64,000 nt of DNA, from the IMG/VR virus record IMGVR_UViG_3300002835_000017. One strand, written 5' to 3'. The translations under genes and the position numbers were made by a program. Positions within the stretch are counted from its first letter, which is position 1; each line of letters opens with the position of its first letter. Of this stretch, positions 13,570 to 36,317 are shown piece by piece. This stretch comes from a virus. The notes under the pieces were generated by a model. That model made no database searches. It saw only the letters and a list, made by a program, of their open reading frames with translations, and was not told the DNA's origin.

Positions 13570-16500
13570 CTACTTATTTAATAACTTTTTAATTGATGTT
13601 ATTTCATTTTTTAATTCAGTAATTTCACCATTTTGTTCTTTTATTCCTTCAATCAATAAGGCAATTATCTTTTCGTAATCAACTCCTAAATATCCATCAC
13701 CCTTTTCCTTTACAACTTCTGGTAATACTTCTTGAATTTCTTGTGCTAAAACTCCTACTTCTTGAACATTTTTTGGTTTGTTAGAAATACCGTTCCAATT
13801 AAATGTATATCCTCCAATTTTTTTAATTTTATCCATTGGATTTGAAATAGGAATAATATTTTCTTTTAATCTCTTATCGGAACTAGCTAATGCGTAAACA
13901 TCACCAGTTGCTCTTATATCACCATTTATAGTTAGAACACCACTAGATACTGAAAATTCACCAACTGATAAATTTGTTATTGAACCATTGGTTGCACTTA
14001 AAGTAGAAAATGTACTTAATCCAGAAAAGTTTGATGAACCCTTTACGGTTAAAAAATTAGTGGCAGATAAACTTGTATCAACTTTAAATTGATTTGAACC
14101 ATATAGTGATTGTAATCCTGCTTGGCAAATTTCAACACTTCTAGGTGCACTACCAACTACGGCATTTACCCCACTAAAATTTGGAGTTTTTAAAGTAATA
14201 CTTTCACCACCAACTAAATAATTTACTCCAATTTGATGTTTTATTCTAACATTATATGTTCCACCTGAAGGTATTACTATAGAACCACCTCCAGTAGATG
14301 TTATACCTCGTTCATAATTAGGAGCATTATAAAATACATAACCCGATGCAATAAGTGCTTCGCCCACTCCCACAACTTCTAAACTTACCCAATGGTAAGT
14401 TTGAACATAAGTTGCAGTAGATATTTGCATCCAATATGAAGTACCTGCCGAATTGGAAATCATTGATGCTATCTCCGCATCTGTTATTGAAACCTCTGTT
14501 CCAGCTGCAACAACACCCGTTGATACATTGTTTGAATAGAATGTAGTACTTGCTTCAGACTGTAAGTTTTGTCCAAAAATTGCACCATTTCTTACTACTG
14601 AATCTGTACCACTAAAATCAGATAAAGCGGATGTAGAACTTCCTATTCTAAATGAAGTATCATCCGTCATAATTACTGCATTTCTAGAACCATCTTTTAT
14701 AAAGAATCCTAAATCATTTGAGTTAATTTCTATTGTACCAGTACTCGTTTTACTTATTTTATCGGTAGAAATTGACCAACCTCCAATTGTAGCACCTAAC
14801 GCGGATAATTCACTTACTGTTATTTTATCTGCCGTTACAGAACCAGCTGCAATCTTACCCGCAGTTATGGCATTTGTAGCAATTTTATCTGCAACTATTG
14901 CGTTCGCTGCTATTTTATCGGCAATTATTGCATTCGCTGCTATTTTACCAGAAGTAACTGCATCTGTTGCAATATTTCCCGCTTGTACTGCATTAGCAGC
15001 TAATTCTGTATTTGTTACGGTACTTAATGTTGCCAAACCACCCAATCCTGTAACTTGTCCAGTTGATACGGTGTTTTGAGTTGCCAAAGTCCCCAATCCT
15101 GTAACTTGTCCAGTTGATACGGTGTTTTGAGTTGCAAGGCCTCCTAATCCTGTAACTTGTCCAGTTGATACGGTGTTTTGAGTTGCAAGGCCTCCCAATC
15201 CACTCACCGTTCCAACTGGAACACTACTACCAACAGCTATGTTACCAACTATATTTAGAGTAGTTCCATCCCATGTTAATGAATTTGATGCAGATTTTAA
15301 AGATAACCTTCCAGTTGTTCCATTACTACCTATAAATGCACCAATTTGGTCATATCCTTTCGTTGCTTGTCCAATTGAAATAAACGGAGATGTTGTGCCA
15401 CCTGCAATTGTAATATTAGCATTACCTGATGAATTTGTTCCAACATTTATTGTGTTTTGTACAAATGATTCTTTAGATATAAACATTTCAGCAGCTACAA
15501 AAAATGAATCTGTTCCGAGTGATTGCCAAAATGTGGTTTGAGTATCCGGTTGTTTATTTAAATTTGCAGATGCATTTGTTTTTGTAGCATAATAAGTTCC
15601 ACTATACAACACCACATCTTTACGTGTTGGGTCTTGACTAACACTATTGTAAGTTGTAGTAGAATTCCAAGGACCTCTAAACACTACACCTGGCCCGTCT
15701 CCCCCAGTCGCTCCGGGTGCACCATCTGCTCCGTTCGTTCCATTGGTTCCGTTCGTTCCATTGGTTCCATTAGCCCCTGCTGCTCCAGTAGGAACTTTTG
15801 TTGCTCTAACAATTATCGTTTGAGTTTGTCCAGTCGTACCTTCACTATCAGTATGTGTTACTGTTAATGTTACCGATGCTTCTGCTGCATTCATTACCGC
15901 AGATGTCATTGTTAATGTTGCACTACTAACAGTTGGTGGAGTTGAGAATCCTGAAGTAGATGCAATGGTCATAGAAGTAAATCTACTAGTTGTTCCTTCT
16001 AATGCACTTATAGTTACATTTGATAAAGTTCCAGTTTGCGTTCCTGCTGCATTAGCCAATACAGATTGCGCTTGAGGTGAAGCAGAAATTAATACCAATG
16101 GAACTGCTTTTTTAACTTTTGATAAACTTAATGTATCGGTTACAGTTCTACTTGTTCCTTCAGAATCAGTTACAATTGCACTTATATTTACAGTTGTGGA
16201 ATTTATTCCATCCGCTAAAGTTTGATTACTCAAAGTTACTACTCCAGTTGTATTATTTACTGTTAAACTCCCACCAGTATCTACTCTAGTTGCAGTTAAT
16301 GTTGCTGGTAAAGTGATAGTAGAACCATTGTAAGTTTCTTTTACAACTATCGTTGAATCTAAAAATGAATCAATTTGTGCACCTGTTGATTTAGCAGTTA
16401 CACTTTGGTCTTTTGGTGTTGATGATATAGCTAAAACAGGTGCTGCTTTTTTATTTTTAGTATAAGTTACGTTTTTTATAATAGAAGTTGTATCACCTGC

Positions 16501-18831
16501 TCCATCCTTATAACTAATTGTTATATCCAATGAACCCGAATCTTGAGTAAGATTTGTAATACTGTATGAGTTTGTTGTTGGATTACTATTATTTCCACCA
16601 TTTGGAGTACATCCAATTCCACTTAAATTTGTTATAGCAAACGTATTATTTGCTCTAATACTATCATTATCATCATCAAATGAAATACTCTCATTACCCA
16701 CTTTAACAGTCACCGAACCACTTGTCAATATGAATGAACCACTTGCTATAAATCCATTTGAAAGTGATGGAAGTGATGCGTTATCATTTGTGAGAGTTGC
16801 GGATAATCCATCTAATATTTTTACAGGAGTTATTTTTATTGCATCAGAAAATTGATTACCAAATTGGTCTGAACCTGAAATGAAGTATGTAGTCTCTCCC
16901 GTTCCAAAGGAATAATCAGTTCCAGCTATTGTATAGGTATCTACGCCGTTTGTTGAGTTAGTAGATACCAATGTCAATGGTGGTTTACCACTTCCTGAAT
17001 TTACAGTTAATGGAGTTGTTGCCGATGCTAAATTCTTACGTTTAGCTTCGATTGTTATTGTTTGACCCGATGGGTTTATTGATAAATCTGTTGCTTTATA
17101 AATAAATTGATTTGTATTAGATGTTACAAAAACACCAGGTGCATTATCACCATCTTCAAATCTGTATACAGTTTCAAATTGTTCTAATCCTTCACACGAT
17201 GCAGTATATGTAATTGAACCAACTAATACAGATGCTACACTACCAGTAAAATTTGCAATAGTTAATGTTGCACCCGCATCACTTACATTTGTTAATGTTC
17301 CAGGATAAGTTCCTGCATAGGATGCGGGTACTATATAATTACCGCCAATATCAAATGCAGATGATGCGTATGTAACTGAACCTGTTAAATTTGATTTTGA
17401 AACTTTAAATCCTAATTGTTGAAATGCAGGATTACCAAATGAACCAGTAGAAAATCTAAATGCAGTTCTATCTGAATCAAATGTTAACAATTTAGTGGCT
17501 ACTCCACTTGTCCCACCCGTAAAATTTGCACTCTGTGTTACTGCAACTGGAACAAAATTGTTATTTACATCATAAAATTCAAATTTAAAATTATAAGTTT
17601 CATTACCAATGACTGTGGGCATTGTAGTAATAAAGGAGATTTCATCAGGTGAAAATGCCGTATCTTCGGAAAGTCTTAAACTTATATTTCCAACATGCCA
17701 TTCACCTTGCGATTGTGAAAAATATAAAGAACCACTTTGAAAATCGGAATCTAATTTAAATGGAATAACCGTATCTGATAGATTTTTTGTGGGGGTTATT
17801 CCATTTAATGTACCAATTAAAACATCACCACCATCCGAGCCACTTATGTATATTCCTAAATTACTTGCGGTAGATGATGAGTAAAACGCATCTAAATTTA
17901 ACTCATACGTGTTTGATGCTTTTATGTCCAACGATTGTGAGTAAGTTAATAATCCACTTCCGTTTAATTTTAATCCACTTTCAACTCTACTAGATGTTAA
18001 TTGGGCAGTTAATGAACCAGTATTCCAAAATAAAGGTAATACTTCCGATGTAAATGTTCCAGTATTTCCTATAACACTTCCTGTTAATTGGGTAGTTGTT
18101 AATAATTCTTTTGATTCTACTAATATATCTTGTATTAAATTAAAATCAGAAATATCTCCTTCAGAAGTTCTGAATACTTTTACTCGTTTTACATCACCTG
18201 CAAATGTTTCTAATTGTGAAAGTTTAATTTCTGCAAAAGATTGATTTATACCAGAATCAACCTTTGAACCACTTTCTATTCTGTATATTGGGGATAGTAT
18301 TTCTGTAATAGTAGCAGTTGGTCTACGATAAAAACGAATTTTAGTAGTATTTGCCAATGTAGGATTTACATTAACACTTCTCTGCCACTTTACATTGTAA
18401 GTACCTTGCCAATCAATTGGTATTGGTGTTAATAAACCATTACCATCATAGTATGAGCTTAATTCACCTAATATTGTAATTGTACACGGACCATACGCAG
18501 TTGTATCTGGATAAACATATACCGCTACAACTTTTGATACCCCTTCATAGTATTCACTAATAAACGATTCTCCGTTTATAGATGACGATACTATACCTTC
18601 ACCAGGTTCATGATATATAGTATTTCCTGCAGCATCTTTAATTTCAATTTTAACTAAAGTATCGGCTACTAATTCCTTTGAACCTGCTATTAAAAATGCG
18701 TTCTTACCACCAGTAAATGCATCTGGTATTTCTGTTACATTGAAGTAGGTACTATTTGGAGCAGTATCTACTACAAATGTATTATACTTATCTAAATTTT
18801 CAGCAAAAAGCGTTTTCTTTATTACGGCCAT
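13570..18831 (-). CDS. Long tail fibre protein with collagen-like segment, beta-repeat shaft and C-terminal peptidase S74 intramolecular chaperone
   Basis: C-terminal SSDKRLKENI..GVLAQEIQEVLPEVV..GVDYEKIIALLIEGIKEQ plus coiled coil; G-X-Y run; A(N)AIxADKI repeats. Confidence 0.88.
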   Translation of the reverse strand: MAVIKKTLFAENLDKYNTFVVDTAPNSTYFNVTEIPDAFTGGKNAFLIAGSKELVADTLVKIEIKDAAGNTIYHEPGEGIVSSSINGESFISEYYEGVSKVVAVYVYPDTTAYGPCTITILGELSSYYDGNGLLTPIPIDWQGTYNVKWQRSVNVNPTLANTTKIRFYRRPTATITEILSPIYRIESGSKVDSGINQSFAEIKLSQLETFAGDVKRVKVFRTSEGDISDFNLIQDILVESKELLTTTQLTGSVIGNTGTFTSEVLPLFWNTGSLTAQLTSSRVESGLKLNGSGLLTYSQSLDIKASNTYELNLDAFYSSSTASNLGIYISGSDGGDVLIGTLNGITPTKNLSDTVIPFKLDSDFQSGSLYFSQSQGEWHVGNISLRLSEDTAFSPDEISFITTMPTVIGNETYNFKFEFYDVNNNFVPVAVTQSANFTGGTSGVATKLLTFDSDRTAFRFSTGSFGNPAFQQLGFKVSKSNLTGSVTYASSAFDIGGNYIVPASYAGTYPGTLTNVSDAGATLTIANFTGSVASVLVGSITYTASCEGLEQFETVYRFEDGDNAPGVFVTSNTNQFIYKATDLSINPSGQTITIEAKRKNLASATTPLTVNSGSGKPPLTLVSTNSTNGVDTYTIAGTDYSFGTGETTYFISGSDQFGNQFSDAIKITPVKILDGLSATLTNDNASLPSLSNGFIASGSFILTSGSVTVKVGNESISFDDDNDSIRANNTFAITNLSGIGCTPNGGNNSNPTTNSYSITNLTQDSGSLDITISYKDGAGDTTSIIKNVTYTKNKKAAPVLAISSTPKDQSVTAKSTGAQIDSFLDSTIVVKETYNGSTITLPATLTATRVDTGGSLTVNNTTGVVTLSNQTLADGINSTTVNISAIVTDSEGTSRTVTDTLSLSKVKKAVPLVLISASPQAQSVLANAAGTQTGTLSNVTISALEGTTSRFTSMTIASTSGFSTPPTVSSATLTMTSAVMNAAEASVTLTVTHTDSEGTTGQTQTIIVRATKVPTGAAGANGTNGTNGTNGTNGADGAPGATGGDGPGVVFRGPWNSTTTYNSVSQDPTRKDVVLYSGTYYATKTNASANLNKQPDTQTTFWQSLGTDSFFVAAEMFISKESFVQNTINVGTNSSGNANITIAGGTTSPFISIGQATKGYDQIGAFIGSNGTTGRLSLKSASNSLTWDGTTLNIVGNIAVGSSVPVGTVSGLGGLATQNTVSTGQVTGLGGLATQNTVSTGQVTGLGTLATQNTVSTGQVTGLGGLATLSTVTNTELAANAVQAGNIATDAVTSGKIAANAIIADKIAANAIVADKIATNAITAGKIAAGSVTADKITVSELSALGATIGGWSISTDKISKTSTGTIEINSNDLGFFIKDGSRNAVIMTDDTSFRIGSSTSALSDFSGTDSVVRNGAIFGQNLQSEASTTFYSNNVSTGVVAAGTEVSITDAEIASMISNSAGTSYWMQISTATYVQTYHWVSLEVVGVGEALIASGYVFYNAPNYERGITSTGGGSIVIPSGGTYNVRIKHQIGVNYLVGGESITLKTPNFSGVNAVVGSAPRSVEICQAGLQSLYGSNQFKVDTSLSATNFLTVKGSSNFSGLSTFSTLSATNGSITNLSVGEFSVSSGVLTINGDIRATGDVYALASSDKRLKENIIPISNPMDKIKKIGGYTFNWNGISNKPKNVQEVGVLAQEIQEVLPEVVKEKGDGYLGVDYEKIIALLIEGIKEQNGEITELKNEITSIKKLLNK
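14820..15000 (-). repeat. Six 10-aa repeats (A[AT]NAIxA[DG]KI) in tail fibre shaft
   Basis: AANAVQAGNI ATDAVTSGKI AANAIIADKI AANAIVADKI ATNAITAGKI AAGSVTADKI. Confidence 0.85.
15029..15201 (-). repeat. 51-bp tandem repeat (~3.4 copies; GLGGLATQNTVSTGQVT)
   Basis: aatcctgtaacttgtccagttgatacggtgttttgagttgc occurs three times at 51-nt spacing. Confidence 0.92.
15688..15790 (-). repeat. Collagen-like G-X-Y run (about 11 triplets) with an 18-bp duplication
   Basis: GAA GAN GTN GTN GTN GTN GAD GAP GAT GGD GPG; ccgttcgttccattggtt x2. Confidence 0.85.
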
Positions 18832-18847
18832 TATAAAATATCTTTAC

Positions 18848-18885
18848 TATAAATATTCTTAAAAAATAAATCTAACATATTTATA
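18848..18885. promoter_or_regulatory. Divergent pair of TATTTATA putative late promoters
   Basis: TATAAATA at 18848-18855 (reads TATTTATA toward the tail fibre) and TATTTATA at 18878-18885 (toward the + strand RHH gene). Confidence 0.55.
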
Positions 18886-18934
18886 TAAAGAAAACTAATA
18901 AATACTTTATTAAACTAAAGATAACTAAAGAGTT

Positions 18935-19108
18935 ATGAAATACGCGATGTTACAAATAAAAAAAGAAACCCACGAACTTCTCAAAAATTATTGTGAAGAA
19001 CATGGGTTTAAAATGGGAAGTTTAGTAGAAAACTTAATTAAAAAACATATTGGAGTTCCTAAAATTCAAAACGGTGTGTTAAAAGCAGATAAAATTAAAT
19101 CTTTCTAA
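18935..19108 (+). CDS. Small ribbon-helix-helix-like DNA-binding protein (57 aa; absent from ORF track)
   Basis: MKYAMLQIKKETHELLKNYCEEHGFKMGSLVENLIKKHI: beta-strand, helix, G turn, helix. Confidence 0.7.
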   Translation: MKYAMLQIKKETHELLKNYCEEHGFKMGSLVENLIKKHIGVPKIQNGVLKADKIKSF

Positions 19109-19818
19109 TCTTCATGTGAGTAGAATGATACTATATTATATTTAATATCATTCTGTACTTTTTCAACTTCATGAAATAAATTTTTATCAGAATCCAATAC
19201 TACAAAATTAGGAAAAATTGGATTTACTTTAATATCATTTCCATTTAAATCATGTAATATCAAATGTCCACCATTTGATTCACTCCATTCGTTATTTAAA
19301 AAATATAAAAATACACATATTCTGTTATGAGGTTTTCCATCATCATGTAATTTTATCTCACATCCATTATCGTAAAATTGTAATTTTGTATTTCCAGTAA
19401 ATTTATTAAATAATTTTTCAGGATAATATTTTCTTACAAAGTTTTTTTGAAAATCTCTTAATACTTCATTGTTTATTCTATTAGTTATTTCAGAATCCAT
19501 AGAAGTACCAAATACCCAAGTTGGATAGAATCCACATTCTTCAATTTTTTTCAATTGATATTGGTGTGCTTTATTATAAACATAATCGGCAGTATCTAAA
19601 TCGTTATCTCTTGCTAAATAATTATCATAAACCAATTCTTCCATATAAGATTGGTCATTATATTTAAACCAATAATCATATCTAGAATATCTTACAAAAT
19701 TTGTATTATCTATATAATTTTTTATTTGTTTAAAACCATCTAAATCAATTAGTTCGGAATAATCTTCCAACTTACCGTAAATGTATCCACTATTTCTGTA
19801 ATTTTCTATACTTTCCAT
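19105..19818 (-). CDS. 2OG-Fe(II) oxygenase (prolyl hydroxylase-like)
   Basis: LHDD (HxD), YFLN..GGHL, FHEV. Confidence 0.85.
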   Translation of the reverse strand: MESIENYRNSGYIYGKLEDYSELIDLDGFKQIKNYIDNTNFVRYSRYDYWFKYNDQSYMEELVYDNYLARDNDLDTADYVYNKAHQYQLKKIEECGFYPTWVFGTSMDSEITNRINNEVLRDFQKNFVRKYYPEKLFNKFTGNTKLQFYDNGCEIKLHDDGKPHNRICVFLYFLNNEWSESNGGHLILHDLNGNDIKVNPIFPNFVVLDSDKNLFHEVEKVQNDIKYNIVSFYSHED

Positions 19819-22800: not shown

Positions 22801-22976
22801 GATAATTCCAATTTAGCATGAGCAATATCTCCTGCTAAATAAATGATTGAATCTTCCGTACCTCTTTTACGAATCTCCTCAAACATTTTTTCAAACACTT
22901 GCCGATACTCATTGTGTCTTTTCACATTACGGATGTGTATATCTGCAATATGATAAATCTTTTTTAATCTACTCAT
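19818..22976 (-). CDS. Fused Mre11/SbcD nuclease - Rad50/SbcC ATPase (gp47-gp46-like recombination nuclease)
   Basis: ADIH, GDIAH, GNHD, GDIH; Walker A APNAAGKS; zinc hook CEFC; signature CSGME; Walker B LVIDEGFGTLD; ISH. Confidence 0.93.
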   Translation of the reverse strand: MSRLKKIYHIADIHIRNVKRHNEYRQVFEKMFEEIRKRGTEDSIIYLAGDIAHAKLELSPELVREISWLFTECSKHCETILITGNHDCNMNNSDRLDVLTPIVEALNLPNFTYLKDTQVYGIGGVDFGVFSIFDRKENWPKGNTLSSNKKIALFHGPVDNSQTDIGYTVSSRHFTTEMFDGYDLALLGDIHKRQTMISPSGCKIVYAGSLIQQNFGETLDKHGFLVWDLDSMKYEEVDIQNDYGYYTMDVDNGKVPIVTDMPKKPRLRVRLSNTDSADTKKVMAEIKMRYGIEDFTIIRTDSLSKSKTGDRLNKLDFEDISDINYQNSLINEYIERMMPFVVPEDLKGLELINRDINSRIVQDDIQRNIQWKPIRFEFSNMFSYGEKNKIDFTKLNGLVGLFAPNAAGKSSLFDAVSFCLYDKSSRAYKASNILNNRKTEFDCTLYFQIDGVDYGIQRTAKTINKGKNVKVDVQFWRQDGDTKTSLNGTERRDTNQIIEQYVGKYEDFVLTALSLQGNNALFIDKSQSERKDLLAQFMGLTIFDKLYDTATEDIREVSVLIKNFKKTDFTTELAEKGKELIEKKSQLKSLETLLNNKNIEVTDLNDKIVGLSRELTPIDSNLDLPKLELSKTNLKTQIENLYKEYNTKENKIIECSTILTEVSHSLVNNKTFKVEEVDVDIETVYSKYISIKNEVLEAENSYQKLKYIEETLNEKILHLEEHKYDPNCEFCCDNVFVKDAINAKDELVILKNKLNTSKNIVNSIQFKLNTLDGVDTQYSEYNELKNTYSKSKIVLEKTEVELDALKTKEQLLENQLNTINENINKYYENEDTISKNKQIESVISELNKTKNNIGIEINKLNKDITNLNGSISSISSFIEDIKQKMNDVKVLEEKNRLYTYYLDAVKRDGIPYELISKALPVIENEVNNILAQVVDFGVTMEMDGKSINAKIVYDDQEWGLEMCSGMEKFVSGLAIRVALINVCNLPRPNFLVIDEGFGTLDSDNLSSLFMMMQYLKTQFDFIWIISHLEQMRDIVDGLIEIKKENGYSKINF

Positions 22977-23914: not shown

Positions 23915-23918
23915 AAAT

Positions 23919-23949
23919 CAAAGATAGTATAAATATTTTATATTTCCAA
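23919..23949 (-). promoter_or_regulatory. Bacteroidota-type promoter TTGG-N19-TATCTTTG with nested TATTTATA (23928-23935)
   Basis: Perfect TAnnTTTG 4 nt upstream of the primase GTG. Confidence 0.7.
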
Positions 23950-23954
23950 GTCTT

Positions 23955-24359
23955 TTAAAACCAATCTTCTGGAATGATTTTATCCGCGTATTTGTACCCA
24001 TTTTTTACACACCAATCTGCGTATGTAGTTTTAGAGTTTTTTGTGATTTTGTTATTTGAGTTGGAAAATACGAATCTTATATCCAAATTTGGATTTTGAG
24101 CCTTAACTAATAGATGTTTTTTCCTATCAGCTGCAACAAATCTACCTTTAGTTTCTACAAAAATGCCATTAGGTAATTTGAAATCAGGATTATAAGTGTG
24201 GTTTGAAGCGGGTACGATGTAAGGAATCTTTTCAGATTCATATTTAACATCGATACCCTTTTCTTTAATTTGACTTGAAATAGTTTCTTCAAGACCAGAT
24301 TTAAATCCGTGTTTTCTACCAACCCAACTTTTAGATTTTTTTATAACTTTTTTAGCCAT
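23955..24359 (-). CDS. T7 endonuclease I-like Holliday junction resolvase
   Basis: FKSGLE, YESEKIPY, YNPDF, VETKGRF, DIRFVF, TTYADWC. Confidence 0.92.
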   Translation of the reverse strand: MAKKVIKKSKSWVGRKHGFKSGLEETISSQIKEKGIDVKYESEKIPYIVPASNHTYNPDFKLPNGIFVETKGRFVAADRKKHLLVKAQNPNLDIRFVFSNSNNKITKNSKTTYADWCVKNGYKYADKIIPEDWF

Positions 24360-24365
24360 TAAAAA

Positions 24366-24575: not shown

Positions 24576-24605
24576 TTGTTTTGTATTTTAAGTATAAATA
24601 TAAGA

Positions 24606-25772
24606 TTATGTGTCAAATCGTATAATAAAGTTTACAGGAATATCTCTTTCCGATTTAATTGGTTGAGGAAGTTTAGCTACCGCAACTAAATCACAATTAT
24701 CATCGTATAAACCAATTGTTGTGATGAATGGTGTTAAGAAAGAACCAGTTGAATCGATAGAACTACTTAAATCATAATGTTCAAATCCTGCAAAGTGAGT
24801 AGAAGAACTTACAGATGATGTATAACGATAATCCAAAGTATTTCCATTTTCTAATATAGATTTTTTACGAATGTACTTAACAGGTTGTTTAGAGTATACT
24901 CTATGTGTATTTCCAGAAGAATCTACAAATGATGTATATTCACCACCTTCCGTTACAACGGCGGATGGGTTTTGTGAAACATTAAATTCATCTTCATTAA
25001 CAATCAATAGATATTCGTGCTCATAAATTGTTTTGGTGGATTTGAATGATAAGTCCCAATTAGATATCAATACATCATTGAGTGCTCGGGTGATTACAAT
25101 CAACCCTTGGGTATAGAATATATTACCAATTGAATTTGTTCCTGCTGCGCCTGATAAAAATGGTATATTTTCTACTATCATTACACCACTTTCAATATTA
25201 AAACTAACAATATTCATATCATAACTTATACCGTTATATGTTAGATTAAATATACTGTCTTCTATATCAAACCCCATAAATTGAAAAGAAGCAGTATACG
25301 CAGCAGATGCTAAATCTGTAAATATAATTTCATTATCTTGAATATCTATAGATACTACAGTAATAGTATCTCCCGCAGAATCTATTAAATTTCCAAAGGT
25401 ATCATCTATATATGTTTTACCATTATCTAATAAATTGATTGAACCTTTTTTGATTCCTTCTCCAACATATATTTGTGGAATAGATATTACTTTTGCGGAA
25501 CCACTTAAAAATCTATCTCTACCCGAATTAGAGATTTCGTATGTATTATTTTTGGAGCCAAATCTTAAAAATGGGTTATCTTCATTTCCATTATAAAATT
25601 GTGCTCTTAATTGACCGTATATAGAATTTTGTGGATATAATCCAGATAATGTAGATGAATTTTCATTAGCTTCTAATAAATCTATTTCATTAGAACCACT
25701 AGAAAAGTTCCATTCTTTGTAGGCTTTGAAAGGCCTAATACTAATATCGGATTTGGGTATTCTTTTTAACAT
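24606..25772 (-). CDS. Virion structural protein with tail-collar-like C-terminus (start revised to MLKRIP at 25772)
   Basis: FITTIGLYDDNCDLVAVAKLPQPI; paralogue of 25857..27092; the track's upstream extension overlaps a terminator. Confidence 0.7.
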   Translation of the reverse strand: MLKRIPKSDISIRPFKAYKEWNFSSGSNEIDLLEANENSSTLSGLYPQNSIYGQLRAQFYNGNEDNPFLRFGSKNNTYEISNSGRDRFLSGSAKVISIPQIYVGEGIKKGSINLLDNGKTYIDDTFGNLIDSAGDTITVVSIDIQDNEIIFTDLASAAYTASFQFMGFDIEDSIFNLTYNGISYDMNIVSFNIESGVMIVENIPFLSGAAGTNSIGNIFYTQGLIVITRALNDVLISNWDLSFKSTKTIYEHEYLLIVNEDEFNVSQNPSAVVTEGGEYTSFVDSSGNTHRVYSKQPVKYIRKKSILENGNTLDYRYTSSVSSSTHFAGFEHYDLSSSIDSTGSFLTPFITTIGLYDDNCDLVAVAKLPQPIKSERDIPVNFIIRFDT

Positions 25773-25795
25773 ATCATATATAAATATAAAGAAAT

Positions 25796-25848
25796 AAAAA
25801 ACCCCCACCATTTCTGACGGGGGTGTCCTTCGGTAGCATCCGTAAGGA
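25796..25848 (-). terminator. Intrinsic terminator (10-bp stem, GAAA loop, U-tract) preceded by a second hairpin
   Basis: Minus strand ACCCCCGTCA-GAAA-TGGTGGGGGT-TTTTT; upstream TCCTTACGG-ATGCTA-CCGAAGGA. Confidence 0.85.
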
Positions 25849-25856
25849 ATATGTTA

Positions 25857-27092
25857 TTAGAAATCAAGTTTTACTTTTATAGCTACTTCTTTATCAAATG
25901 ATTTAGCAATTGGTTTAGAAGTTTTAGCTACCGCTAATAATTCGTTTGCGTCATTGTACAAACCAACAGTTGTAATATACACATGCGGGTCTCTTTCGAA
26001 CAACGGTTGTACAAATGCACCTACTGAACCAGTTACGAATGTTGGGTTGTTAGAGAAGTTAAATTCTCTATTGTTTGCTCTTACAAAGTAATGCGATGTA
26101 GAAACATTTTCAGTTCTACGAGCTTGGAAATCACCACCTCTTTTTAGTGCATCGTACAATTTCAATGAACCAGATACCGAACCTGATTGATGATATTTTA
26201 ATGTAGTTGAACCAGCAGCTGCTGATAATTCACCACCAACTGATGCTGAAAGTGCAGTTGGGTTTAATAAGATAATACCCATATCAGGATAGAATAAACC
26301 ATATCCTTGTTGTGTGTAAGTATCTGATACTTGTGCTACTGATGCAGTTAAGGATGTTCCAATATTCAATGCACCACTAACCATATTATAAACTCTACCA
26401 GCAGTTGTTACATTTTCGCCAGTTCCACCTGAATCATCAATTAATGAAATATATCCAGCTGAACCTGATAGTGCGATTTGTATATTTCCTGGATCTAATT
26501 TTTCTTTATATCTAGCTCTATTAATGTTAAGTACATAGAATGATGATAAATCATGTCCTCCTGCGGTTGACCCAGTGTAAACACTAAAATATGCATCAGC
26601 TGCATCCAATAATACATTTTTAAATTGATTATAAACTGCAGTAGTTTGCAAATTGGAATCATCATCTTGAGATAATGTAGGTGCTCCGTTTCCGTTTACA
26701 TCTCCATACGCGATGGAAAATTGAACCTCTGCAGAAGTTGATGAGGTTGCAACATTATATACATCCAAATAATACTTACCACTTACAGAGTTCAACTGTG
26801 TAGATGATGTGAAAAAATTAGTCAATGAACCTTCATCACCACTCCATATTCCAGAAGTTACAATTTCTGTTCTGTTTGTTACTTTATCAATTGCTCCAAA
26901 TTTCTTATATATACCATTTGTAATAGTGGTTATATCCGAACTAATTTGCTCACCCTGTCCTAAAAATTGGTTTACAATACTAACTAATTCATTTGTATCG
27001 ATAGGAGTACCTGCTACATTTGATTGTCCTGCCAAGTATTGAGCTATATTACTTGCTAAAAGGGCTCCTCTATTGTCTCTAATTAATGCCAT
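25857..27092 (-). CDS. Virion structural protein with tail-collar-like C-terminus
   Basis: YITTVGLYNDANELLAVAKTSKPI..KLDF; S/T/G-rich. Confidence 0.7.
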   Translation of the reverse strand: MALIRDNRGALLASNIAQYLAGQSNVAGTPIDTNELVSIVNQFLGQGEQISSDITTITNGIYKKFGAIDKVTNRTEIVTSGIWSGDEGSLTNFFTSSTQLNSVSGKYYLDVYNVATSSTSAEVQFSIAYGDVNGNGAPTLSQDDDSNLQTTAVYNQFKNVLLDAADAYFSVYTGSTAGGHDLSSFYVLNINRARYKEKLDPGNIQIALSGSAGYISLIDDSGGTGENVTTAGRVYNMVSGALNIGTSLTASVAQVSDTYTQQGYGLFYPDMGIILLNPTALSASVGGELSAAAGSTTLKYHQSGSVSGSLKLYDALKRGGDFQARRTENVSTSHYFVRANNREFNFSNNPTFVTGSVGAFVQPLFERDPHVYITTVGLYNDANELLAVAKTSKPIAKSFDKEVAIKVKLDF

Positions 27093-27100
27093 AGTTTATT

Positions 27101-27724: not shown

Positions 27725-27773
27725 AATATTTTTATTATTCTTTGTTTATAAATATAATAATTTTTAAATTTCG

Positions 27774-30700
27774 TTATTCTACTTCCAAAATAGGTTCGGA
27801 AGAATCTCTACCAGTTTTATTTACTTTTAATGTATTCGGATTAGATATAAATGTTTCAATCGGAGAACTACCATCTAGTGTAGTTGCCGCAGTATTTTTA
27901 GAACCCTTAAAGAAACTATTTTGTAATCCCCTAGTTAAATCGGAAGTAAATTTATTATGCGTTGGTAAATATCCATTTACATTTGTTACTTCTATTACAT
28001 TGCCCCCAACTGTTGGACTATTTGGTGCACCGAATGGTTGAATATTTAATCGTGTTTCAGTATAAGTTTGAATATCCGAAACATATCCACCACGTGGGTC
28101 TCCCAATCCGTTTGCAGATGCGGTAATTGCAAATTTTTGTATAATTCTTTCTTTTTCTTCCGTAACTAATTGTACTTTAATTCGTTCTTTAACAACTCTA
28201 TTATCTTTATTAAAATAAGTTCTAATCGCGGAACCGTTTTGTGCGTATATACCAAACCCAATTGTTTCAAATTCAGTTTGTCCTATAACTTGATTGGAAT
28301 TTATAATATCAATTTCAGTTACAATTGTAGGGGTTCCTAAATCTGCATCTATAGTTATTTCTTTTTGATAATAATCCGAATTAAAAACAAAATTAGAATT
28401 CATATCAATAGTAGAATCCTGTTGATAATTTTCAGCCAATAAATTATTTACCGATGCAGTTGAAATCAATGCTTCATACTGATTGTTTTCTACCGTTAAA
28501 TTTTCTGATAAATTGGCATCTATTAATGTTTCTTTTTGAATATTTTCAAATGAAATAACACTAGTATCAGATAATTTTATTTCAGTTTCTTTCTGATAAT
28601 CATCTGCAGTAGGTTTTTTGTGAACAACTTTACTTCTTTCTAAAAAGTGTGGTTCTATTAATAAACCAGTAGTTGCTTTAACCCTCGCAGGCAACATCTT
28701 TTTTAAATCTTCAAACATAGATTTCTCATATAGTTTGATTAGATTTATGTAAGCATATATATCTCTATTATCAAATCTTTGGAAATAATAATTTCTTAAA
28801 TTATCCAATGATTTATAATTTGGTTTATAATCATCCGATGGGTCACCAATGTAGTTATCAATATTTAACCCACCAAAAGTTTTAGCAATATCCATATTCA
28901 ACTCTTTTGTAGGAGAGAAGAATAAACCAACTCTGTTAGAATCAGTTGGAGATTGGTCAAATGCTTTTTTAGTTGCTCTACTTTTTGAAGATAAATCTAC
29001 ACCAACACTTCCAGATATTTTTTGATTAGTTAAAGTATATTGGTCTTCGAATCTAACTTTATTAGTTGAAAATCTACTCGCTCCACCATCTGGATAATCC
29101 ATTACAATTGTTCTATCGATTACTTCAAATTGAAATGGATATTCACTTATAGATGGGAAATTAAATGCCGATGCTGATAATAATGGTGTAGTGTTTACCG
29201 AATACAATGAAGCAGTAGTTCCATTTTCATAATCATTTCTAGTCAATCCATTTTCAAAATAAATGTTAGTATCAACATTTATTAACGAAGATGTTTGTGC
29301 TAAATTTTTAGGATATTCAAAATCTAAACGGAAATATAAATCATCGGTTGAAGATGAAACACTATTTCCATTAATCATTTCAGGAAATGAAACGTGTTCA
29401 TAAAATCTTTCAGTATCCAATACTTCAGACCATAAACGGAATTCATCCACACTACCAATATAGTTTCCACCCAATCTAATTGTAGAACCATTATTCCAAT
29501 TTGTATAATTAGAAGATGATATTGATTCTTGGAATATAGTTCTTTCTTTATCGGCTTGTCTTACATCCAATTTTAATCCAGCAGAACCACTACTTACAGA
29601 TATACCAAAAAATTTACCATTAAATATTGGTAATGTTGAGGTTTCTATTGATAGTGACCCACTATAATTAAATTTAACTTTACCATAATCACTATTTGTA
29701 GAACCACTTAAATTTACATTCCAGCCACTACCACTTATTAAAGTATATTGGGATGATTCTAATGGTTTTACAAATAATTCAATCGTATTTGGTTTAAGAC
29801 TAGAAGTATTATTTGTTTGTTTCCACTCCATCTGTATTGATGAAGTTAATGCCATGTTAAGACCCGTAGTAATATTATCTATTACCAACTTACTTTTAGA
29901 TGTATCGTTTATTTCAGGACCTCCAAATTCTAAAATTGAAAGATTAGATGATGGAATACCATAACATGCCATCAATGCGTGAATACCTCTCCTAGTACCT
30001 TTATGTTTTAGTAGATATGGTAAGTTATTTACAATTCTTCTCCAAACTTCGTTAGTTCTTTGTTTGGCCGGATTTGATTCTTTATCATTACCTTCTTTAT
30101 CCTTGCCAAATACATAACTCCACAAATCGGCATCAGCTGCTAAATTTTTAGCATCCCAACTAAATGATTTTAATGTATCAAAAAGTAATTTGTCAGAAAT
30201 GCCATCTTTTGCTTTATATCCTAAACCTCTACTTTTTTCAATTGATTTTGTATGGAAATAGATATTATCAAAATGATGTCCAATCATTGAGAAGAATAAT
30301 AATAAACTTTCGTTTTCATCATTATTAACAATGAATTGAGGTATATTGTTTAATACATAATTTGAATTATTGGCATCATATATATTTGCAAGTTCTTCTA
30401 TATTATTGTACCAATTTTTAACTTCGTTAGATGTACTCAATCTTCGATTAGCACCATTGTAGGGCCAACTTAAAGAAGATGATGTGTATAAGAATTTTTC
30501 AAATCCATCAAATCCGTTTATTAATTGATTTTTCTTTAATTGTTGTCTTTCTGCTTCTTGTATAGATGGTAACGAACCACTATGTGCCTGTGATGCGTTA
30601 GCTGCTGATAGAGCAGTTTCATATAATTCAATTAGTTGTATTTTATATACAAAGTTATCAATACGTTCATTTGCAGAACTGAAATGAACAAAATTCTCCC

Positions 30701-32750
30701 ATAAATAAGTAGAACCAGACGAGTATTCGATATTTAATTCATCCGTAGTTATTAACGATGAACTTAAATATAGTGATACTAACTCATTAGAAGATGTGGA
30801 ACCACTTAATATTATATTATCTAATGATTCGTAATTAGTAGATTGTCCTTTTACAAAGTCTACATCAATTGTAAAATTTGGTCCTTTTATTGGTGGACAA
30901 CTTACATCATTATTTTCTGTTAATACAACCGTTTCAATTAAAGGATTACTCATTAATTTTGTAATCCAGAATGTTGAATTATTCTGTATATTAGCAGGTA
31001 ATGGTGAATATAGTTTTAATATAATTGAATTAACAACATCATTTGGAGCAACAAATGTATTACCTAAATTATCTGTAGACTTTTTAGATAATGTAAAATC
31101 ATCAGTTTCCCAAGATGAAATTATAATTTGCTCATCGTTTCCAAAATTAGCAAGGTGTGTTAGATACTTACTTTCTTTTGAAGGTTCATCGATTTTTAAT
31201 TTTTCAGAAAAAGCATTAAATAAAGCGTTAGTAATTATATCTTCATTTAATGAAAGTGTTGGTAGTGTTAATTTTGTCAACACTTCGTATTCATTACCAA
31301 TTAACTCCTCTGCTCCACTTCGATTATATGGTTTTAGTATTAATGTTATATTAGTACTACCAACCCAGTTAGGATAATTTTCTCTTAATTTTTTAAGATT
31401 AATTTTTATAGAACCGTTTGGTGGTTGATTACTTAATAATCCAATTTTACTACCATCTTTTTGTTTTAACCAAACATCAACTGATGAAACTGCAAAAGAG
31501 GAATATGAAACTTCATAATCAATATTATAATCAGAAAACGATGGTACATCGATTGATTCTGCATATATGACTTCCGTAATAGCAGGGAAATCATTTATAG
31601 CAGTAAATGTTAAAATCACCTCAACTCTAGTTCCTGTTCCAAATTTTTTACTGGTTGGAACAAAAAATATTTTTTTAGAACCGTAAACCTCATTAAAATC
31701 TTTTTGAAAGAATATAGTTACTTCTTTGTCACTAGCTGGAATTTCTAAAACTTTATCAGCCGAAAGATATACTAAAACGGAATCTGCGAATTCAGTATTA
31801 AATGGAATTACTATACTTTTTTCTGTATCCGAATCTTTTACATTAACATTATATTGTATTTGATTTAATACTACTGTAGGTGATTCGGATTTAATTTCTC
31901 TTTCAGCTTCAATTACAACACCTAAACCTGAATTTAATAATGATGCTGGTACTCTAAATGCATAATTTTGTTTTGTTAACCTATCGTAGTTAACAGAATC
32001 TGAACCAAATTGTTGAGCAATTCCAGAATATATGTTTTTGATAAAAATACCATCTGGTACATTACCTTTAATTTCAAAGTTAACAAACCCCCCATCTAAA
32101 ATATTTTTGGGTATTGTAGAAATTCTGTTATCATATAATTGCAATTCTCCATCTACAACTATATTATCTTCAAATACAATTTGATATTTTAAACTTAAAG
32201 TAGTTAATTCCTTTATATTAGAATTAAACAAAACTTCATAACCAACCATTGGATTATCAACGGTTACCACGTCTGCAGGTGGTGTTGGAAGTGTTTGAGT
32301 TCGTTGTAATACCTCTGTTTTAAATCTTAAAGTTATTGTTCCGAAATTGAAGTTTTGGGTTTGTTGTTCTTCCCATACATCATCTATTAATGAATATTCT
32401 GTAACACCGATTCCCTCAACTATTTCATTCGCAAATTGTAGTTGTTTAGTATTAATTATAAATTTTGATAATACTTTTCCATTATCTAAATTTGCAGTAT
32501 AAGTTTTAGGACCATTAAATTGTAAAGATGAATTATATACAATATCAACGGATTTACCATATCCAGCAGATACACCTTCTTCAAAAAATTCTAAATCATT
32601 AGTTTCACTTACTAAATAAATTTTTAACGAAGATGGTGGGTTAGTTGGTCTATACGTGGGGGCATTGTAAGGACCAGTTTGACCTGTATTCCTAGTACTT
32701 CCGTTATTATTAAAATCCGGATAAGCGTAAAGGCTTTCTTGTTCTGCCAT
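27774..32750 (-). CDS. Large baseplate wedge-like structural protein with LamG-like domain
   Basis: YLLKHKGTRRGIHALMACYG (wedge/gpI-like), GSVDEFRLW (LamG-like), LKKMLPAR..TGLLIEP; TATTTATA at 32768-32775. Confidence 0.65.
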   Translation of the reverse strand: MAEQESLYAYPDFNNNGSTRNTGQTGPYNAPTYRPTNPPSSLKIYLVSETNDLEFFEEGVSAGYGKSVDIVYNSSLQFNGPKTYTANLDNGKVLSKFIINTKQLQFANEIVEGIGVTEYSLIDDVWEEQQTQNFNFGTITLRFKTEVLQRTQTLPTPPADVVTVDNPMVGYEVLFNSNIKELTTLSLKYQIVFEDNIVVDGELQLYDNRISTIPKNILDGGFVNFEIKGNVPDGIFIKNIYSGIAQQFGSDSVNYDRLTKQNYAFRVPASLLNSGLGVVIEAEREIKSESPTVVLNQIQYNVNVKDSDTEKSIVIPFNTEFADSVLVYLSADKVLEIPASDKEVTIFFQKDFNEVYGSKKIFFVPTSKKFGTGTRVEVILTFTAINDFPAITEVIYAESIDVPSFSDYNIDYEVSYSSFAVSSVDVWLKQKDGSKIGLLSNQPPNGSIKINLKKLRENYPNWVGSTNITLILKPYNRSGAEELIGNEYEVLTKLTLPTLSLNEDIITNALFNAFSEKLKIDEPSKESKYLTHLANFGNDEQIIISSWETDDFTLSKKSTDNLGNTFVAPNDVVNSIILKLYSPLPANIQNNSTFWITKLMSNPLIETVVLTENNDVSCPPIKGPNFTIDVDFVKGQSTNYESLDNIILSGSTSSNELVSLYLSSSLITTDELNIEYSSGSTYLWENFVHFSSANERIDNFVYKIQLIELYETALSAANASQAHSGSLPSIQEAERQQLKKNQLINGFDGFEKFLYTSSSLSWPYNGANRRLSTSNEVKNWYNNIEELANIYDANNSNYVLNNIPQFIVNNDENESLLLFFSMIGHHFDNIYFHTKSIEKSRGLGYKAKDGISDKLLFDTLKSFSWDAKNLAADADLWSYVFGKDKEGNDKESNPAKQRTNEVWRRIVNNLPYLLKHKGTRRGIHALMACYGIPSSNLSILEFGGPEINDTSKSKLVIDNITTGLNMALTSSIQMEWKQTNNTSSLKPNTIELFVKPLESSQYTLISGSGWNVNLSGSTNSDYGKVKFNYSGSLSIETSTLPIFNGKFFGISVSSGSAGLKLDVRQADKERTIFQESISSSNYTNWNNGSTIRLGGNYIGSVDEFRLWSEVLDTERFYEHVSFPEMINGNSVSSSTDDLYFRLDFEYPKNLAQTSSLINVDTNIYFENGLTRNDYENGTTASLYSVNTTPLLSASAFNFPSISEYPFQFEVIDRTIVMDYPDGGASRFSTNKVRFEDQYTLTNQKISGSVGVDLSSKSRATKKAFDQSPTDSNRVGLFFSPTKELNMDIAKTFGGLNIDNYIGDPSDDYKPNYKSLDNLRNYYFQRFDNRDIYAYINLIKLYEKSMFEDLKKMLPARVKATTGLLIEPHFLERSKVVHKKPTADDYQKETEIKLSDTSVISFENIQKETLIDANLSENLTVENNQYEALISTASVNNLLAENYQQDSTIDMNSNFVFNSDYYQKEITIDADLGTPTIVTEIDIINSNQVIGQTEFETIGFGIYAQNGSAIRTYFNKDNRVVKERIKVQLVTEEKERIIQKFAITASANGLGDPRGGYVSDIQTYTETRLNIQPFGAPNSPTVGGNVIEVTNVNGYLPTHNKFTSDLTRGLQNSFFKGSKNTAATTLDGSSPIETFISNPNTLKVNKTGRDSSEPILEVE

Positions 32751-32788
32751 TATTTGTTTTTATTTTATATAAATACTTTAATATTATT

Positions 32789-34090: not shown

Positions 34091-34101
34091 AGTTTAATAT
34101 A

Positions 34102-35253
34102 TTAATATGAACCTGGATTTGCTTTTACAATATTACATGGATATTCTTTAAATTCAGTTGTACCATCTTTTTTAGTTGCAATAACTTTTATAGTTCCTTT
34201 ATATTCCGTTGTATTACCCCATCCCCATGGCCATTTTTCTTCTGATTCAGCCCTTTTTGGTACTGCGTTTGCATTTATTTTAAAGTCAATAGTTTCATTT
34301 CCACCACCAGCTAAATCAAAATTATTCTTCGGCACGGTTACCCAATTCCAATTATTGGCTAATTTAAGTTGAAATGTTATATTTACAGGTTGAGTATCGT
34401 TGTTTGTTATAGCCAACTGACCACCTGCCTCCCATTTGGTTGAGTTATAATCCTTCGCATTAATTTTACCAGCCAATCCTTTTGTTATATCGGTTCTAGT
34501 TGTTGCACCTGACCACTTAATGATTGTGGTTTTAACTAAAATATCACCACCACTTGCTAACGCAGTATTAGATGCCGATTGTTGAATAGCCTGTTGTTGT
34601 TGAACTGCGCCTAATTGAGATTGTAAACCTTCTATAATTGAATTTAATGAATCAATCTGTTTAATCAATGCTTCAATTTGTGCTTTAAATCCTGCGTTTT
34701 GAGATTGTAAAGATGCTCTTAAAATAGATTCATCTACTGATTTTTGCACTGCAGATTGTATCTGTGTTGCAAATTGCTCAATCACTTTTGATAACGCATC
34801 CAGTTGATTAGCCAATACATCATTGGTTTGCTCTATTGATAATCGTTTATTAGTTTCAGATAGTACTTTAGATGTTAACGTATTGATTTCAGAATTTAAA
34901 ACTTCAATATCTGTTGTTAATTTTTCGACTTGTTTTCTTAAATCTCTATTAGCAACAACCTCATCATCATATAGTGGTTTAGGTACTAAATTAAGGTTTA
35001 CTTCAGGAATATTTGGCTTTAATTCCTTAACTTCAGTATCAATTGCTTTTAAAAGTTCAACATTATCTAGTTTGGATATAACTAAAGGTTTAAACACTAA
35101 AGATGATGCTACATTATCTTCATTAACTACGGTTACACCATATTCATTTTTAGAAACTGCGGCAGAACCTGATACTTTTAGAATATTTTCTAAATCAGTA
35201 TTTCTTTTTTCTTCCAATTTTAATGCAATTGCTTCTAATGATGTTAATGCCAT
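34102..35253 (-). CDS. Coiled-coil structural protein with C-terminal Ig-like domain
   Basis: Long heptad region followed by a beta-rich ITNNDTQPVNITF..W domain. Confidence 0.55.
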   Translation of the reverse strand: MALTSLEAIALKLEEKRNTDLENILKVSGSAAVSKNEYGVTVVNEDNVASSLVFKPLVISKLDNVELLKAIDTEVKELKPNIPEVNLNLVPKPLYDDEVVANRDLRKQVEKLTTDIEVLNSEINTLTSKVLSETNKRLSIEQTNDVLANQLDALSKVIEQFATQIQSAVQKSVDESILRASLQSQNAGFKAQIEALIKQIDSLNSIIEGLQSQLGAVQQQQAIQQSASNTALASGGDILVKTTIIKWSGATTRTDITKGLAGKINAKDYNSTKWEAGGQLAITNNDTQPVNITFQLKLANNWNWVTVPKNNFDLAGGGNETIDFKINANAVPKRAESEEKWPWGWGNTTEYKGTIKVIATKKDGTTEFKEYPCNIVKANPGSY

Positions 35254-35255
35254 TA

Positions 35256-36317
35256 TTATACTATTTGAAATGTTAATTTATCATCAATTATAGTAGATAT
35301 TTCACCATCAATTATTTTTAATTTTAATCTATATGTTCTATACAATGGTAGTGTATTTAAATCTAAAATAAAATAATTGGATGTATTATCACATGAAATT
35401 TTAGTATATTCTCCAAATGGATATATAACATCATCTGTTACATAATCTTCCAATTGATAATATGATGTTGTAGGTAAATATTTTGATTGGTCATATTCAA
35501 ATGTTGTTGAAAATGACTTTAAAGGAAACATATCTCTACCTTTAATTCTAATTTTTATCTTACTATCTTTACTATATTCCGTTTTTAAATTGGTAATAAT
35601 TACTTTATAATCATCTTGAGCAGAACCAGTAACTGGTAATAAACTGCCTGTTACAAATGATACATCATTCCAAACTACTTCTAATTTTGGCTCATATATA
35701 GTAGTAGTTTCTTTAGAAAAGAATTTCAATACACCATAATCTAATGCATTTTCTTCGTTTTCTAATCCATGATGTACAATAAATCCATTATTTGGTATAG
35801 AACCACTTAACCAGCTATTAACTATACCTGTCACATTAATTCTGATATCAGCATCTTCATAGTTATAAGATTGAGATGCTTGAGATGCAGTATACCACGT
35901 TCCCCCTTCCGCGTTTGCAGAACCAGTTGTTCCTGGCGTAAATACCGCAGTTCCTGCAGTAACATTATCTTGCCAAGTATCAACACCATTTCGGTATTTC
36001 CAACTTACACCATCCGATGTAATATTATCAAATTTAGTACCCGTTCCCATTGTCCAACTTTGCGAAACTGCGTTCGCGTGTATTGTATATTCTAAAGGAA
36101 TTTCTTCTGCTTGAGAAGATTTTAGATTTAAATAAACAATAGAACCACTTGGGATTCCCATATTAGCTACATCAAATTTTATTAAGGTTCTAGCTATATC
36201 TTTAGCGGAACCATAATATAATTTACCAACCTCTAATATCTCATCTCTACCTGCATTTTGGTCTGGTTGTTGTAAGTAGATACTGGCATCGAACGATGAT
36301 GTGAATAATTTATGCAT
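35256..36317 (-). CDS. DNRLRE/disaggregatase-like virion protein
   Basis: DASIY..N.G..LEVG..RTLIKFD..W..W..NNGF..FFSKE..PKLEV pattern. Confidence 0.65.
   Translation of the reverse strand: MHKLFTSSFDASIYLQQPDQNAGRDEILEVGKLYYGSAKDIARTLIKFDVANMGIPSGSIVYLNLKSSQAEEIPLEYTIHANAVSQSWTMGTGTKFDNITSDGVSWKYRNGVDTWQDNVTAGTAVFTPGTTGSANAEGGTWYTASQASQSYNYEDADIRINVTGIVNSWLSGSIPNNGFIVHHGLENEENALDYGVLKFFSKETTTIYEPKLEVVWNDVSFVTGSLLPVTGSAQDDYKVIITNLKTEYSKDSKIKIRIKGRDMFPLKSFSTTFEYDQSKYLPTTSYYQLEDYVTDDVIYPFGEYTKISCDNTSNYFILDLNTLPLYRTYRLKLKIIDGEISTIIDDKLTFQIV

Follow-up and report, generated by a model that had tools for sequence, protein, structure and literature searches.

Why should one short tripeptide, Ser or Thr followed by Gly and Ser ([ST]-G-S, hereafter [ST]GS), recur in the outer virion proteins of a phage, and might the phage itself modify it? 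The question is raised by a 64,000-nucleotide stretch of viral DNA (IMG/VR record IMGVR_UViG_3300002835_000017), analyzed over its whole length and called the window below, for which the original prediction had proposed that the tripeptide is the sequon of a phage-encoded virion glycosylation system. The window has a GC content of ~30% and carries nearly all of its genes on the minus strand. It holds a T4-type baseplate module, made up of gp25, a gp6-like Baseplate_J protein and five to six large unannotated proteins that matched no Pfam or PHROG family, together with replication genes (a Mre11-Rad50 fusion, a primase and endonuclease I) and, at positions 1-13568, an island encoding three GT7+LamG proteins (GT, glycosyltransferase), a methyltransferase and a radical S-adenosylmethionine (SAM) enzyme. 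The phage is an uncultured, aquatic and T4-like one, closest among cultured phages to Flavobacterium phage immuto, Microcystis phage Mel-JY01 and Rhodothermus phage RM378, and a further close relative is the uncultured 484-kb phage LR756508; this group has been named "Far-T4" (PMC4360716). The 202-kb genome G001, whose 353-amino-acid (aa) baseplate protein is 95% identical to that of the window, served as the reference (window position = G001 position minus about 143384) and was compared with twelve other genomes, with T4, S-PM2 and HTVC008M as motif-poor controls outside the clade.

The excess of [ST]GS is genuine and under selection, and it is peculiar both to virion proteins and to the clade. 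A recount returned exactly the 13, 8, 5, 5 and 3 occurrences first reported for the tail fibre and the 1658-, 411-, 353- and 401-aa proteins, and none in the 1052-aa Mre11-Rad50 protein or the 566-aa carbamoyltransferase. Composition-preserving shuffles, run protein by protein, gave p values from 0.0005 to 0.02, and the peripheral virion proteins carry three to six times the expected number. Across the 14 open reading frames (ORFs) of the window that formed the virion set, SGS occurs 26 times against 5.97 expected (p 1e-9) and ranks 1st among all 8000 tripeptides; a first-order Markov model raises the expectation to 11.8 (p 2e-4). SGS is not enriched in the non-virion ORFs of the window (5 against 3.2 expected), and neither the inner baseplate proteins nor the enzymes, including three beta-rich LamG domains, are enriched in the motif. 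The order of the residues matters even with no composition model, the virion ORFs holding 26 SGS, 8 SSG and 5 GSS. TGS taken alone is not order-specific within the window (TGS 11, STG 11, GST 9); genome-wide it is (58 vs about 24 in G001). Neighbouring tripeptides do not share in the excess: SGG, GSG and SGD are not enriched in the window virion ORFs, Asn and Asp are not enriched at position 1 (observed/expected, NGS 7/4.5 and DGS 3/3.1), and the TAS, SAS and TSS variants that had been counted alongside the motif show no significant enrichment in the window (8/4.4, 6/4.6 and 11/6.9).

The signal lies at the protein level, because 23 different 9-mers encode the 37 motifs and the DNA word A[GC]TGGTTC is both strand- and frame-specific, appearing 24 times on the coding strand (22 of them in frame 0) and never on the opposite strand; a DNA-level motif is thereby ruled out. 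The first codon is A[GC]T in 24 of the 37, which is the pattern expected from repeated single-base interchange of Ser and Thr. Local low complexity is excluded by shuffles confined to blocks of 10 to 40 aa, which left 12.4 +/- 3.5 motifs against the 37 found (z=7), and by the permuted-tripeptide counts. Amplification of one repeat is excluded for the window, where the enriched proteins are mutually non-homologous apart from a C terminus that the 401-aa protein has in common with the 411-aa one; for the adjoining virion block, paralogy does inflate the counts.

The same ordered excess runs through the clade. SGS ranks 1st among the 8000 tripeptides in G001, in the related genomes G002 and G003 and in immuto, 3rd in Mel-JY01 and 4th in RM378, as against 4755th in T4, 109th in S-PM2 and 22nd in HTVC008M, and observed/expected for the motif is 2.4 to 3.1 in all six motif-rich genomes. 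The ratio of SGS to the mean of SSG and GSS is 2.1 to 4.6 in nine genomes and 0.7 to 1.2 in LR756508, T4, S-PM2 and HTVC008M. The three controls show no order-specific excess, and the motif is thus not general to T4-like tails. Its context is also distinctive. The residue before [ST]GS is hydrophobic in 45 to 64% of cases across the clade (background, 31 to 39%) and the residue after it in 49 to 66% in five of the six genomes (38% vs 34% in Mel-JY01), typical flanks being V, I or F before and L, F, V or I after; the [ST]GS of T4, S-PM2 and HTVC008M are without hydrophobic flanks.

The motif is partly retained over long distances and partly turned over. In 84 distant homologs of the 353-aa protein (33 to 66% identity), a mean of 3.99 motifs was found against 0.53 expected, with Ser favored over Thr at position 3 by ~10:1 (335 [ST]GS vs 34 [ST]GT). 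Sites 131, 171 and 223 of that protein are ancestral and sites 57 and 230 are recent gains, and 189 further motifs fall in 63 rare alignment columns, vs 43 to 69 for permuted tripeptides. Repeated gains at many positions fit a tag selected as such. Among four families examined, the motif Ser/Thr is better conserved than other Ser/Thr in two (0.86 vs 0.69; 0.98 vs 0.40) and not in the other two. Mapped onto two AlphaFold models, ten motifs fall in varied contexts, most of them loops, and have no structural element in common. In the 353-aa model (predicted local distance difference test [pLDDT] 93), the motifs sit at a loop end, a strand end and a helix C-cap, with two in one long loop; in the 411-aa model (pLDDT 69), three occupy loops of low confidence, a fourth a hairpin turn and the fifth a helix N-cap. 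As far as these models tell, [ST]GS does not stand for any single kind of turn. The first ~220 residues of the 353-aa protein are predicted to fold like carbohydrate-binding modules (CBMs) that bind chondroitin or alginate (8wab, 7vbo; TM about 0.7), a fold that would fit a peripheral location, and the protein may be a candidate glycan-binding receptor protein. Its family comprises about 1300 clusters at 50% identity.

The most informative genome is a relative that has the proteins and not the motif. In a concatenated tree of four core proteins, RM378 branches first and LR756508 falls inside the clade, next to G001-G003, with a support of only 0.705 for the Mel-JY01/LR756508 node. LR756508 has orthologs of the gp6-like, 353-aa, 411-aa and 1658-aa proteins, and its genome shows no ordered excess (SGS 78, SSG 62, GSS 69). 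Its 353-aa ortholog contains 0 motifs and has WKEHE and TSGA where the ancestral sites were. Three LR-like contigs from other metagenomes are likewise motif-poor, the other 68 of 72 diverse 353-aa orthologs having at least 2 motifs each. The baseplate folds do not need the motif, because the LR756508-like orthologs do without it.

Which gene follows the motif? Among the genes conserved in the clade and absent from the controls are three glycosyltransferase genes at 40 to 44 kb of G001, a GT2 (208 aa), a GT1-like (422 aa) and a GT4 (460 aa); the GT2 gene (G001 39986-40612) lies beside the other two, outside the window. In a collection of 50,697 phage records, all three were nearly exclusive to the clade, the sole outside match being a marginal partial GT4 in Pontimonas phage phiPsal1. 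When the roughly 208 ORFs of G001 were screened for genes that all six motif-rich genomes have and that LR756508 and the three controls lack, the GT2 was the only one to fit. LR756508 keeps the GT4 and lacks both the GT2 and the GT1-like gene, which weakens the case for the GT4 as the key enzyme. RM378 has no GT1-like gene and carries two tandem small GT2 copies (L141:14010-15248), and it shows the excess. In a falsification test on four more GT2-bearing contigs, SGS ratios were 4.6 (G006), 2.4 (G007, computed after removal of three giant low-complexity proteins), 2.1 (G010) and 1.2 (G009). The last of these (1.18) is ruled out as a counterexample because the contig is without virion genes, and the tally is an excess in 9/9 GT2-positive genomes and 0/4 GT2-negative ones. 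Co-occurrence of the motif with particular glycosyltransferase families, a check proposed with the original prediction, holds for the 208-aa GT2 and fails for GT7. As a separate observation, the related phage G007 encodes 3225-aa and 2086-aa proteins (L371:6370-16047 and L371-L372 [G007 18133-24393]) with hundreds of Ser-Gly-Thr and Ser-Gly-Ser in S/G/T-rich tracts, the 2086-aa protein being homologous to a G001 fibre; these giant proteins may be extreme, mucin-like forms of the same tag.

The GT2 belongs to Pfam Glycos_transf_2 (E 7.5e-12), and its D-x-D-E motif is invariant in six clade sequences (LDADE in five, LDFDE in RM378); clusters of the clade GT2 are 96 to 100% viral. The best match of the clade profile among solved structures is the GT domain of GmaR (E 1.1e-8, positions 3-202 of 209), other solved GT2s matching only positions 3-116, the nucleotide-binding half. 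In Listeria monocytogenes, the N-terminal GT domain of GmaR transfers N-acetylglucosamine (GlcNAc) to flagellin, and its TPR domain has been proposed to bind flagellin (PMC9638930). Like GmaR (PDB 22ao), which O-glycosylates in the cytoplasm Ser/Thr of a structural protein later assembled outside the cell, the phage GT2 would have a GT-A fold with a DxD motif, and it aligns over its full length; unlike GmaR, which has TPR, linker and antirepressor domains, it is a bare 208-aa catalytic domain. Given a relationship this remote and read from sequence, the match is a lead and not proof of orthology. The GT4 has as its best solved relative B736L of chlorovirus NY-2A (PDB 3oy2, E 5e-12), and the GT1-like protein has no PDB match. 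A GtfA/GtfB-like pair, the O-GlcNAc transferase of serine-rich-repeat adhesins, is therefore unsupported for these two. DNA glycosylation as the role of the conserved glycosyltransferases is disfavored for immuto, whose DNA contained, by liquid chromatography-mass spectrometry, three canonical nucleosides and fdPreQ1, a glycosylated base being nowhere mentioned (PMC10516641).

The enzymes to which the motif had first been credited fared less well. Pfam GT7 (PF13733) is found in G001-G003 and is absent from Mel-JY01, immuto, RM378 and LR756508, and the whole island is common only to G003 and, in part, to G002. Because relatives without GT7 show an excess of 2.4 to 3.1, the GT7-LamG proteins and their neighbours cannot be what maintains the motif, and GT7-LamG is ruled out as its reader. 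The GT10/47-like, GT95/96-like and sulfotransferase labels remain unconfirmed, with no Pfam, PHROG or PDB sequence match, and the unannotated ORFs of the island gave no PHROG matches and nothing in PDB sequence searches. The analogy with the animal proteoglycan linker pathway, which works on Ser-Gly sites through a xylosyltransferase, the GT7 enzyme B4GALT7, exostosins and sulfotransferases and so also has a Ser next to Gly and enzymes of the GT7 type, breaks down on the flanks, since the pattern here is hydrophobic-[ST]-G-S-hydrophobic rather than an acidic Ser-Gly-x-Gly, and on GT7, which is absent from relatives that keep the excess.

A third part of the proposal, a bare receptor-binding tip, is not borne out either. 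The fibre gene (13570-18831, minus strand) encodes 1753 aa, arranged as an anchor (aa 1-186) that Mel-JY01 and LR756508, too, have conserved, the motif-bearing part (aa 187-767), Ig-like repeats, a collagen-like stretch, short tandem repeats and a terminal Peptidase_S74 chaperone. There are 13 [ST]GS in aa 1-780 against 2.0 expected and 0 in aa 781-1753 against 3.1, the latter a weak deficit (P=0.04), and in G001, G002, G003 and Mel-JY01 the motifs of the orthologous fibre continue nearly to its end. Nothing speaks for a recent horizontal acquisition of the motif-free distal part, GC content at third codon positions (GC3) being uniform. The fibre is 72% identical to its G001 ortholog, compared with 95% for the 353-aa and 97% for the 411-aa protein, and is a hypervariable host-range gene, because its divergence is concentrated in the distal half. 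What stands of the original prediction is that the tripeptide behaves like a selected tag on peripheral virion proteins, for which glycosylation by phage enzymes is so far the likeliest explanation; the named enzymes, the proteoglycan analogy and the bare tip fall away.

The best-supported reading, to which we give a probability of about one in two, is that [ST]GS is a sequon for glycosylation that the small GmaR-like GT2 recognizes, the glycan then being tailored by accessory islands. The tag would be [ST]-G-S, mostly hydrophobic on each side and with Ser strongly preferred at position 3, on peripheral virion proteins of Far-T4 phages, and it would be read by a soluble phage enzyme in the cytoplasm. 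O-glycosylation of a Ser or Thr of the tag would precede or accompany assembly, with the conserved 208-aa GT-A/GT2, its DxD intact, as the foremost candidate to initiate it. The variable island adjoining the fibre (three GT7-LamG proteins, the methyltransferase and others) would then extend or tailor the glycan differently between phages, as would the separately encoded carbamoyltransferase. The wider picture, of an abundant aquatic T4-like clade, distributed worldwide, that coats its outer baseplate and fibres with glycans at [ST]-G-S by means of a minimal GmaR-like GT2 and diversifies them with swappable islands, is more tentative. Several points weigh against the sequon reading. Modification of the tag, its nature as a sugar, the accepting residue and the enzyme that would attach it are all read from sequence rather than from chemistry. 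The association of GT2 and motif amounts to one within-clade loss, in the LR756508 lineage, plus outgroups, and is suggestive rather than statistical; no further independent GT2 losses were found, the LR756508-like group being the only motif-poor one among the 72 diverse 353-aa orthologs, and LR756508 differs in other ways too (484 kb, 40% GC). The glycosyltransferase cluster sits among replication-type genes and could serve another substrate, and its genes were examined in G001 (95% identical in the baseplate protein), standing in for the genome of the window. The similarity to GmaR is remote and the phage GT2 is without the TPR domain. Non-virion proteins are not depleted of [ST]GS, and the hydrophobic flanks suggest strand ends, maybe partly buried.

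This last point leads to the alternative that survives best, which we nonetheless consider unlikely: a structural or assembly motif, a strand cap or tight turn in beta-rich virion proteins, maybe read by a folding or assembly chaperone peculiar to the clade and involving no covalent modification. The flanks are hydrophobic (0.53-0.64 at -1 against a background of 0.31; 0.38-0.66 at +1) and alternate in a strand-like pattern around a central Gly, certain sites hardly vary (70 of the 84 homologs have TGSL at site 223), and several motifs lie at strand ends or helix caps. However, the structural context is not uniform, and the LR756508 orthologs, members of the same families, lack the motif even at ancestral sites. 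Nor is there an excess in the virion proteins of T4, S-PM2 and HTVC008M or in beta-sandwich LamG domains, and Asn, Asp and Gly, the usual turn substitutes, are not enriched at position 1. Repeated gains in many non-homologous columns fit a tag better than a site-specific need of the fold.

If [ST]GS is a tag, the evidence for its selection says nothing on its chemistry, and it might serve a non-sugar modification or a partner (phosphorylation, acylation, docking of a decoration protein), the co-distribution with GT2 being coincidental and the glycosyltransferases acting on another substrate such as the host envelope or a different phage product. The gene association does come from a single loss event, and the genome has tailoring systems of other kinds, among them radical SAM and ATP-grasp enzymes. 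However, the GT2 alone of about 208 genes has the matching phyletic pattern, the solved protein nearest to it is an O-glycosyltransferase of proteins, the pattern was matched by no kinase or acyltransferase, and a large, variable island of glycan type adjoins the fibre gene; we hold this explanation to be somewhat less probable still than a structural motif. A functionless by-product of repeat amplification, local composition or codon and mutational bias is largely refuted and can almost be set aside, for although the adjoining virion block holds many motif-rich fibres that are paralogous and internally repetitive and the motif codons are skewed (AGT in 16 of 26 position-1 Ser, GGT in 29 of 37), the enriched window proteins are unrelated, the excess survives block shuffling, the DNA word keeps to one frame and strand, the motif Ser/Thr outlast other Ser/Thr in two of the four families, and the excess is confined to virion proteins though all genes are alike in strand and composition.

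The features on which these comparisons rest are collected in Table 1.

Table 1. Motif-bearing features of the window and features that contrast with them (window positions)
Feature	Position	Strand	Observation
Tail fibre, motif part (aa 187-767)	16531..18273	-	13 [ST]GS vs 2.0 expected
Distal fibre (aa 768-1753)	13570..16530	-	No motif; Ig-like repeats, collagen-like stretch, short tandem repeats, Peptidase_S74 at aa 1651-1708
401-aa peripheral baseplate protein	24606..25811	-	3 motifs; C terminus paralogous to next gene
411-aa baseplate protein	25857..27092	-	5 motifs; conserved from RM378 to the window phage
1658-aa baseplate/fibre protein (gene 27774-32750), centre (aa 649-1248)	29007..30806	-	All 8 motifs vs 1.05 expected
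383-aa coiled-coil-like protein	34102..35253	-	One SGS, aa 28-30; present in 51/52 distinct homologs
353-aa peripheral baseplate protein, predicted CBM-like N-terminal beta-sandwich	35256..36317	-	5 motifs
Inner baseplate proteins, gp6-like Baseplate_J and gp25	36319..38789	-	1 and 0 motifs; internal contrast
gp6-like Baseplate_J protein	36319-38349	-	Inner baseplate
gp25	38352-38789	-	Inner baseplate
Three GT7 + LamG glycosyltransferase paralogs	1899..6609	-	Accessory; at most glycan-extending, not motif reader
Methyltransferase_24	7472..8230	-	Within the accessory tailoring island adjoining the fibre gene
Carbamoyltransferase	42035..43735	-	No motif; accessory, in G003 and HTVC008M only

Some further features of the fibre and its neighbours deserve mention in their own right. 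The collagen-like G-x-y run of the fibre (GAAGANGTNGTNGTNGTNGADGAPGATGGDGPG) occupies aa 1014-1048 (window 15688-15792), and directly upstream of the fibre gene lies a gene for a 2-oxoglutarate-Fe(II) (2OG-Fe[II]) oxygenase (window 19105-19818); by analogy with giant viruses, this could be a candidate prolyl- or lysyl-hydroxylase-type enzyme for that run. At aa 1211-1270 (window approximately 15022-15201) there are about four tandem copies of a 17-residue unit (GLGGLATQNTVSTGQVT), followed by short repeats of the AANAI-x-ADKI type. N-x-[ST] occurs 20 times in the proximal fibre (aa 1-780, window 16492-18831) against 12.9 expected (P=0.015) and 22 times in the distal fibre against 16.1 (not significant), an excess that is too weak for a second sequon. 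Mre11 (Metallophos) and Rad50 (SMC/AAA_23) are fused in the one 1052-aa protein (window 19818-22976), and a gene for a T7-type endonuclease I (window 23955-24359) sits within the tail-gene block.

How would such a system compare with what is known? To our knowledge, the only phages for which virion glycosylation has been demonstrated to date are a few mycobacteriophages, and we know of no short sequon for it. The targets in mycobacteriophages are C-terminal Ser/Thr-rich tails of capsid and tail-tube subunits. The virions of Che8, Corndog and Myrna are reportedly O-glycosylated by phage-encoded glycosyltransferases, in work said to be that of Freeman et al. in Cell Host Microbe in 2023. As there, soluble phage glycosyltransferases (the three GT7 of the window; the GT2, GT1-like and GT4 of G001) would act in the cytoplasm on structural proteins of the phage itself and yield a surface glycan coat; unlike there, the target would be a dispersed internal tripeptide in baseplate and fibre proteins of a T4-like myovirus, known from sequence alone, and the enzymes are unrelated in detail. 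Chloroviruses, which infect eukaryotes, glycosylate their own capsid with their own enzymes, the glycans being N-linked at atypical sequons of the major capsid protein (MCP). The likeness here is that the best solved relative of the clade GT4 is B736L, itself without established function; the difference is that the GT4, retained in motif-poor LR756508, does not by itself track the motif. The general O-glycosylation system of Bacteroidota uses the sequon D-[ST]-[AILVMT] and is periplasmic, and phage virion proteins assemble in the cytoplasm. Unlike that sequon, the motif has Gly rather than Asp before Ser (DGS, 3 vs 3.1 expected), and the excess also occurs in Microcystis and Rhodothermus phages.

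Our literature search found no paper on virion glycosylation in the Far-T4 clade, and new here are the motif-poor relative nested in the clade, the phyletic pattern that the GT2 alone matches, its likeness to GmaR, and the rejection of the GT7, proteoglycan and bare-tip ideas. If the sequon reading is correct, [ST]GS would be the first sequon to be defined for glycosylation of a phage virion, and the swappable islands would be a viral analogue of O-antigen variation. Glycoproteins would be predicted for thousands of uncultured Far-T4 phages of lakes and oceans, with sites readable from sequence, and the pair of small enzyme and tag would lend itself to testing or reuse. The hypothesis can be put directly to the test, as three clade members (immuto, Mel-JY01 and RM378) are cultured. 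A sugar coat of this kind would bear on adhesion to hosts and particles and on escape from proteases, grazers and neutralizing factors.

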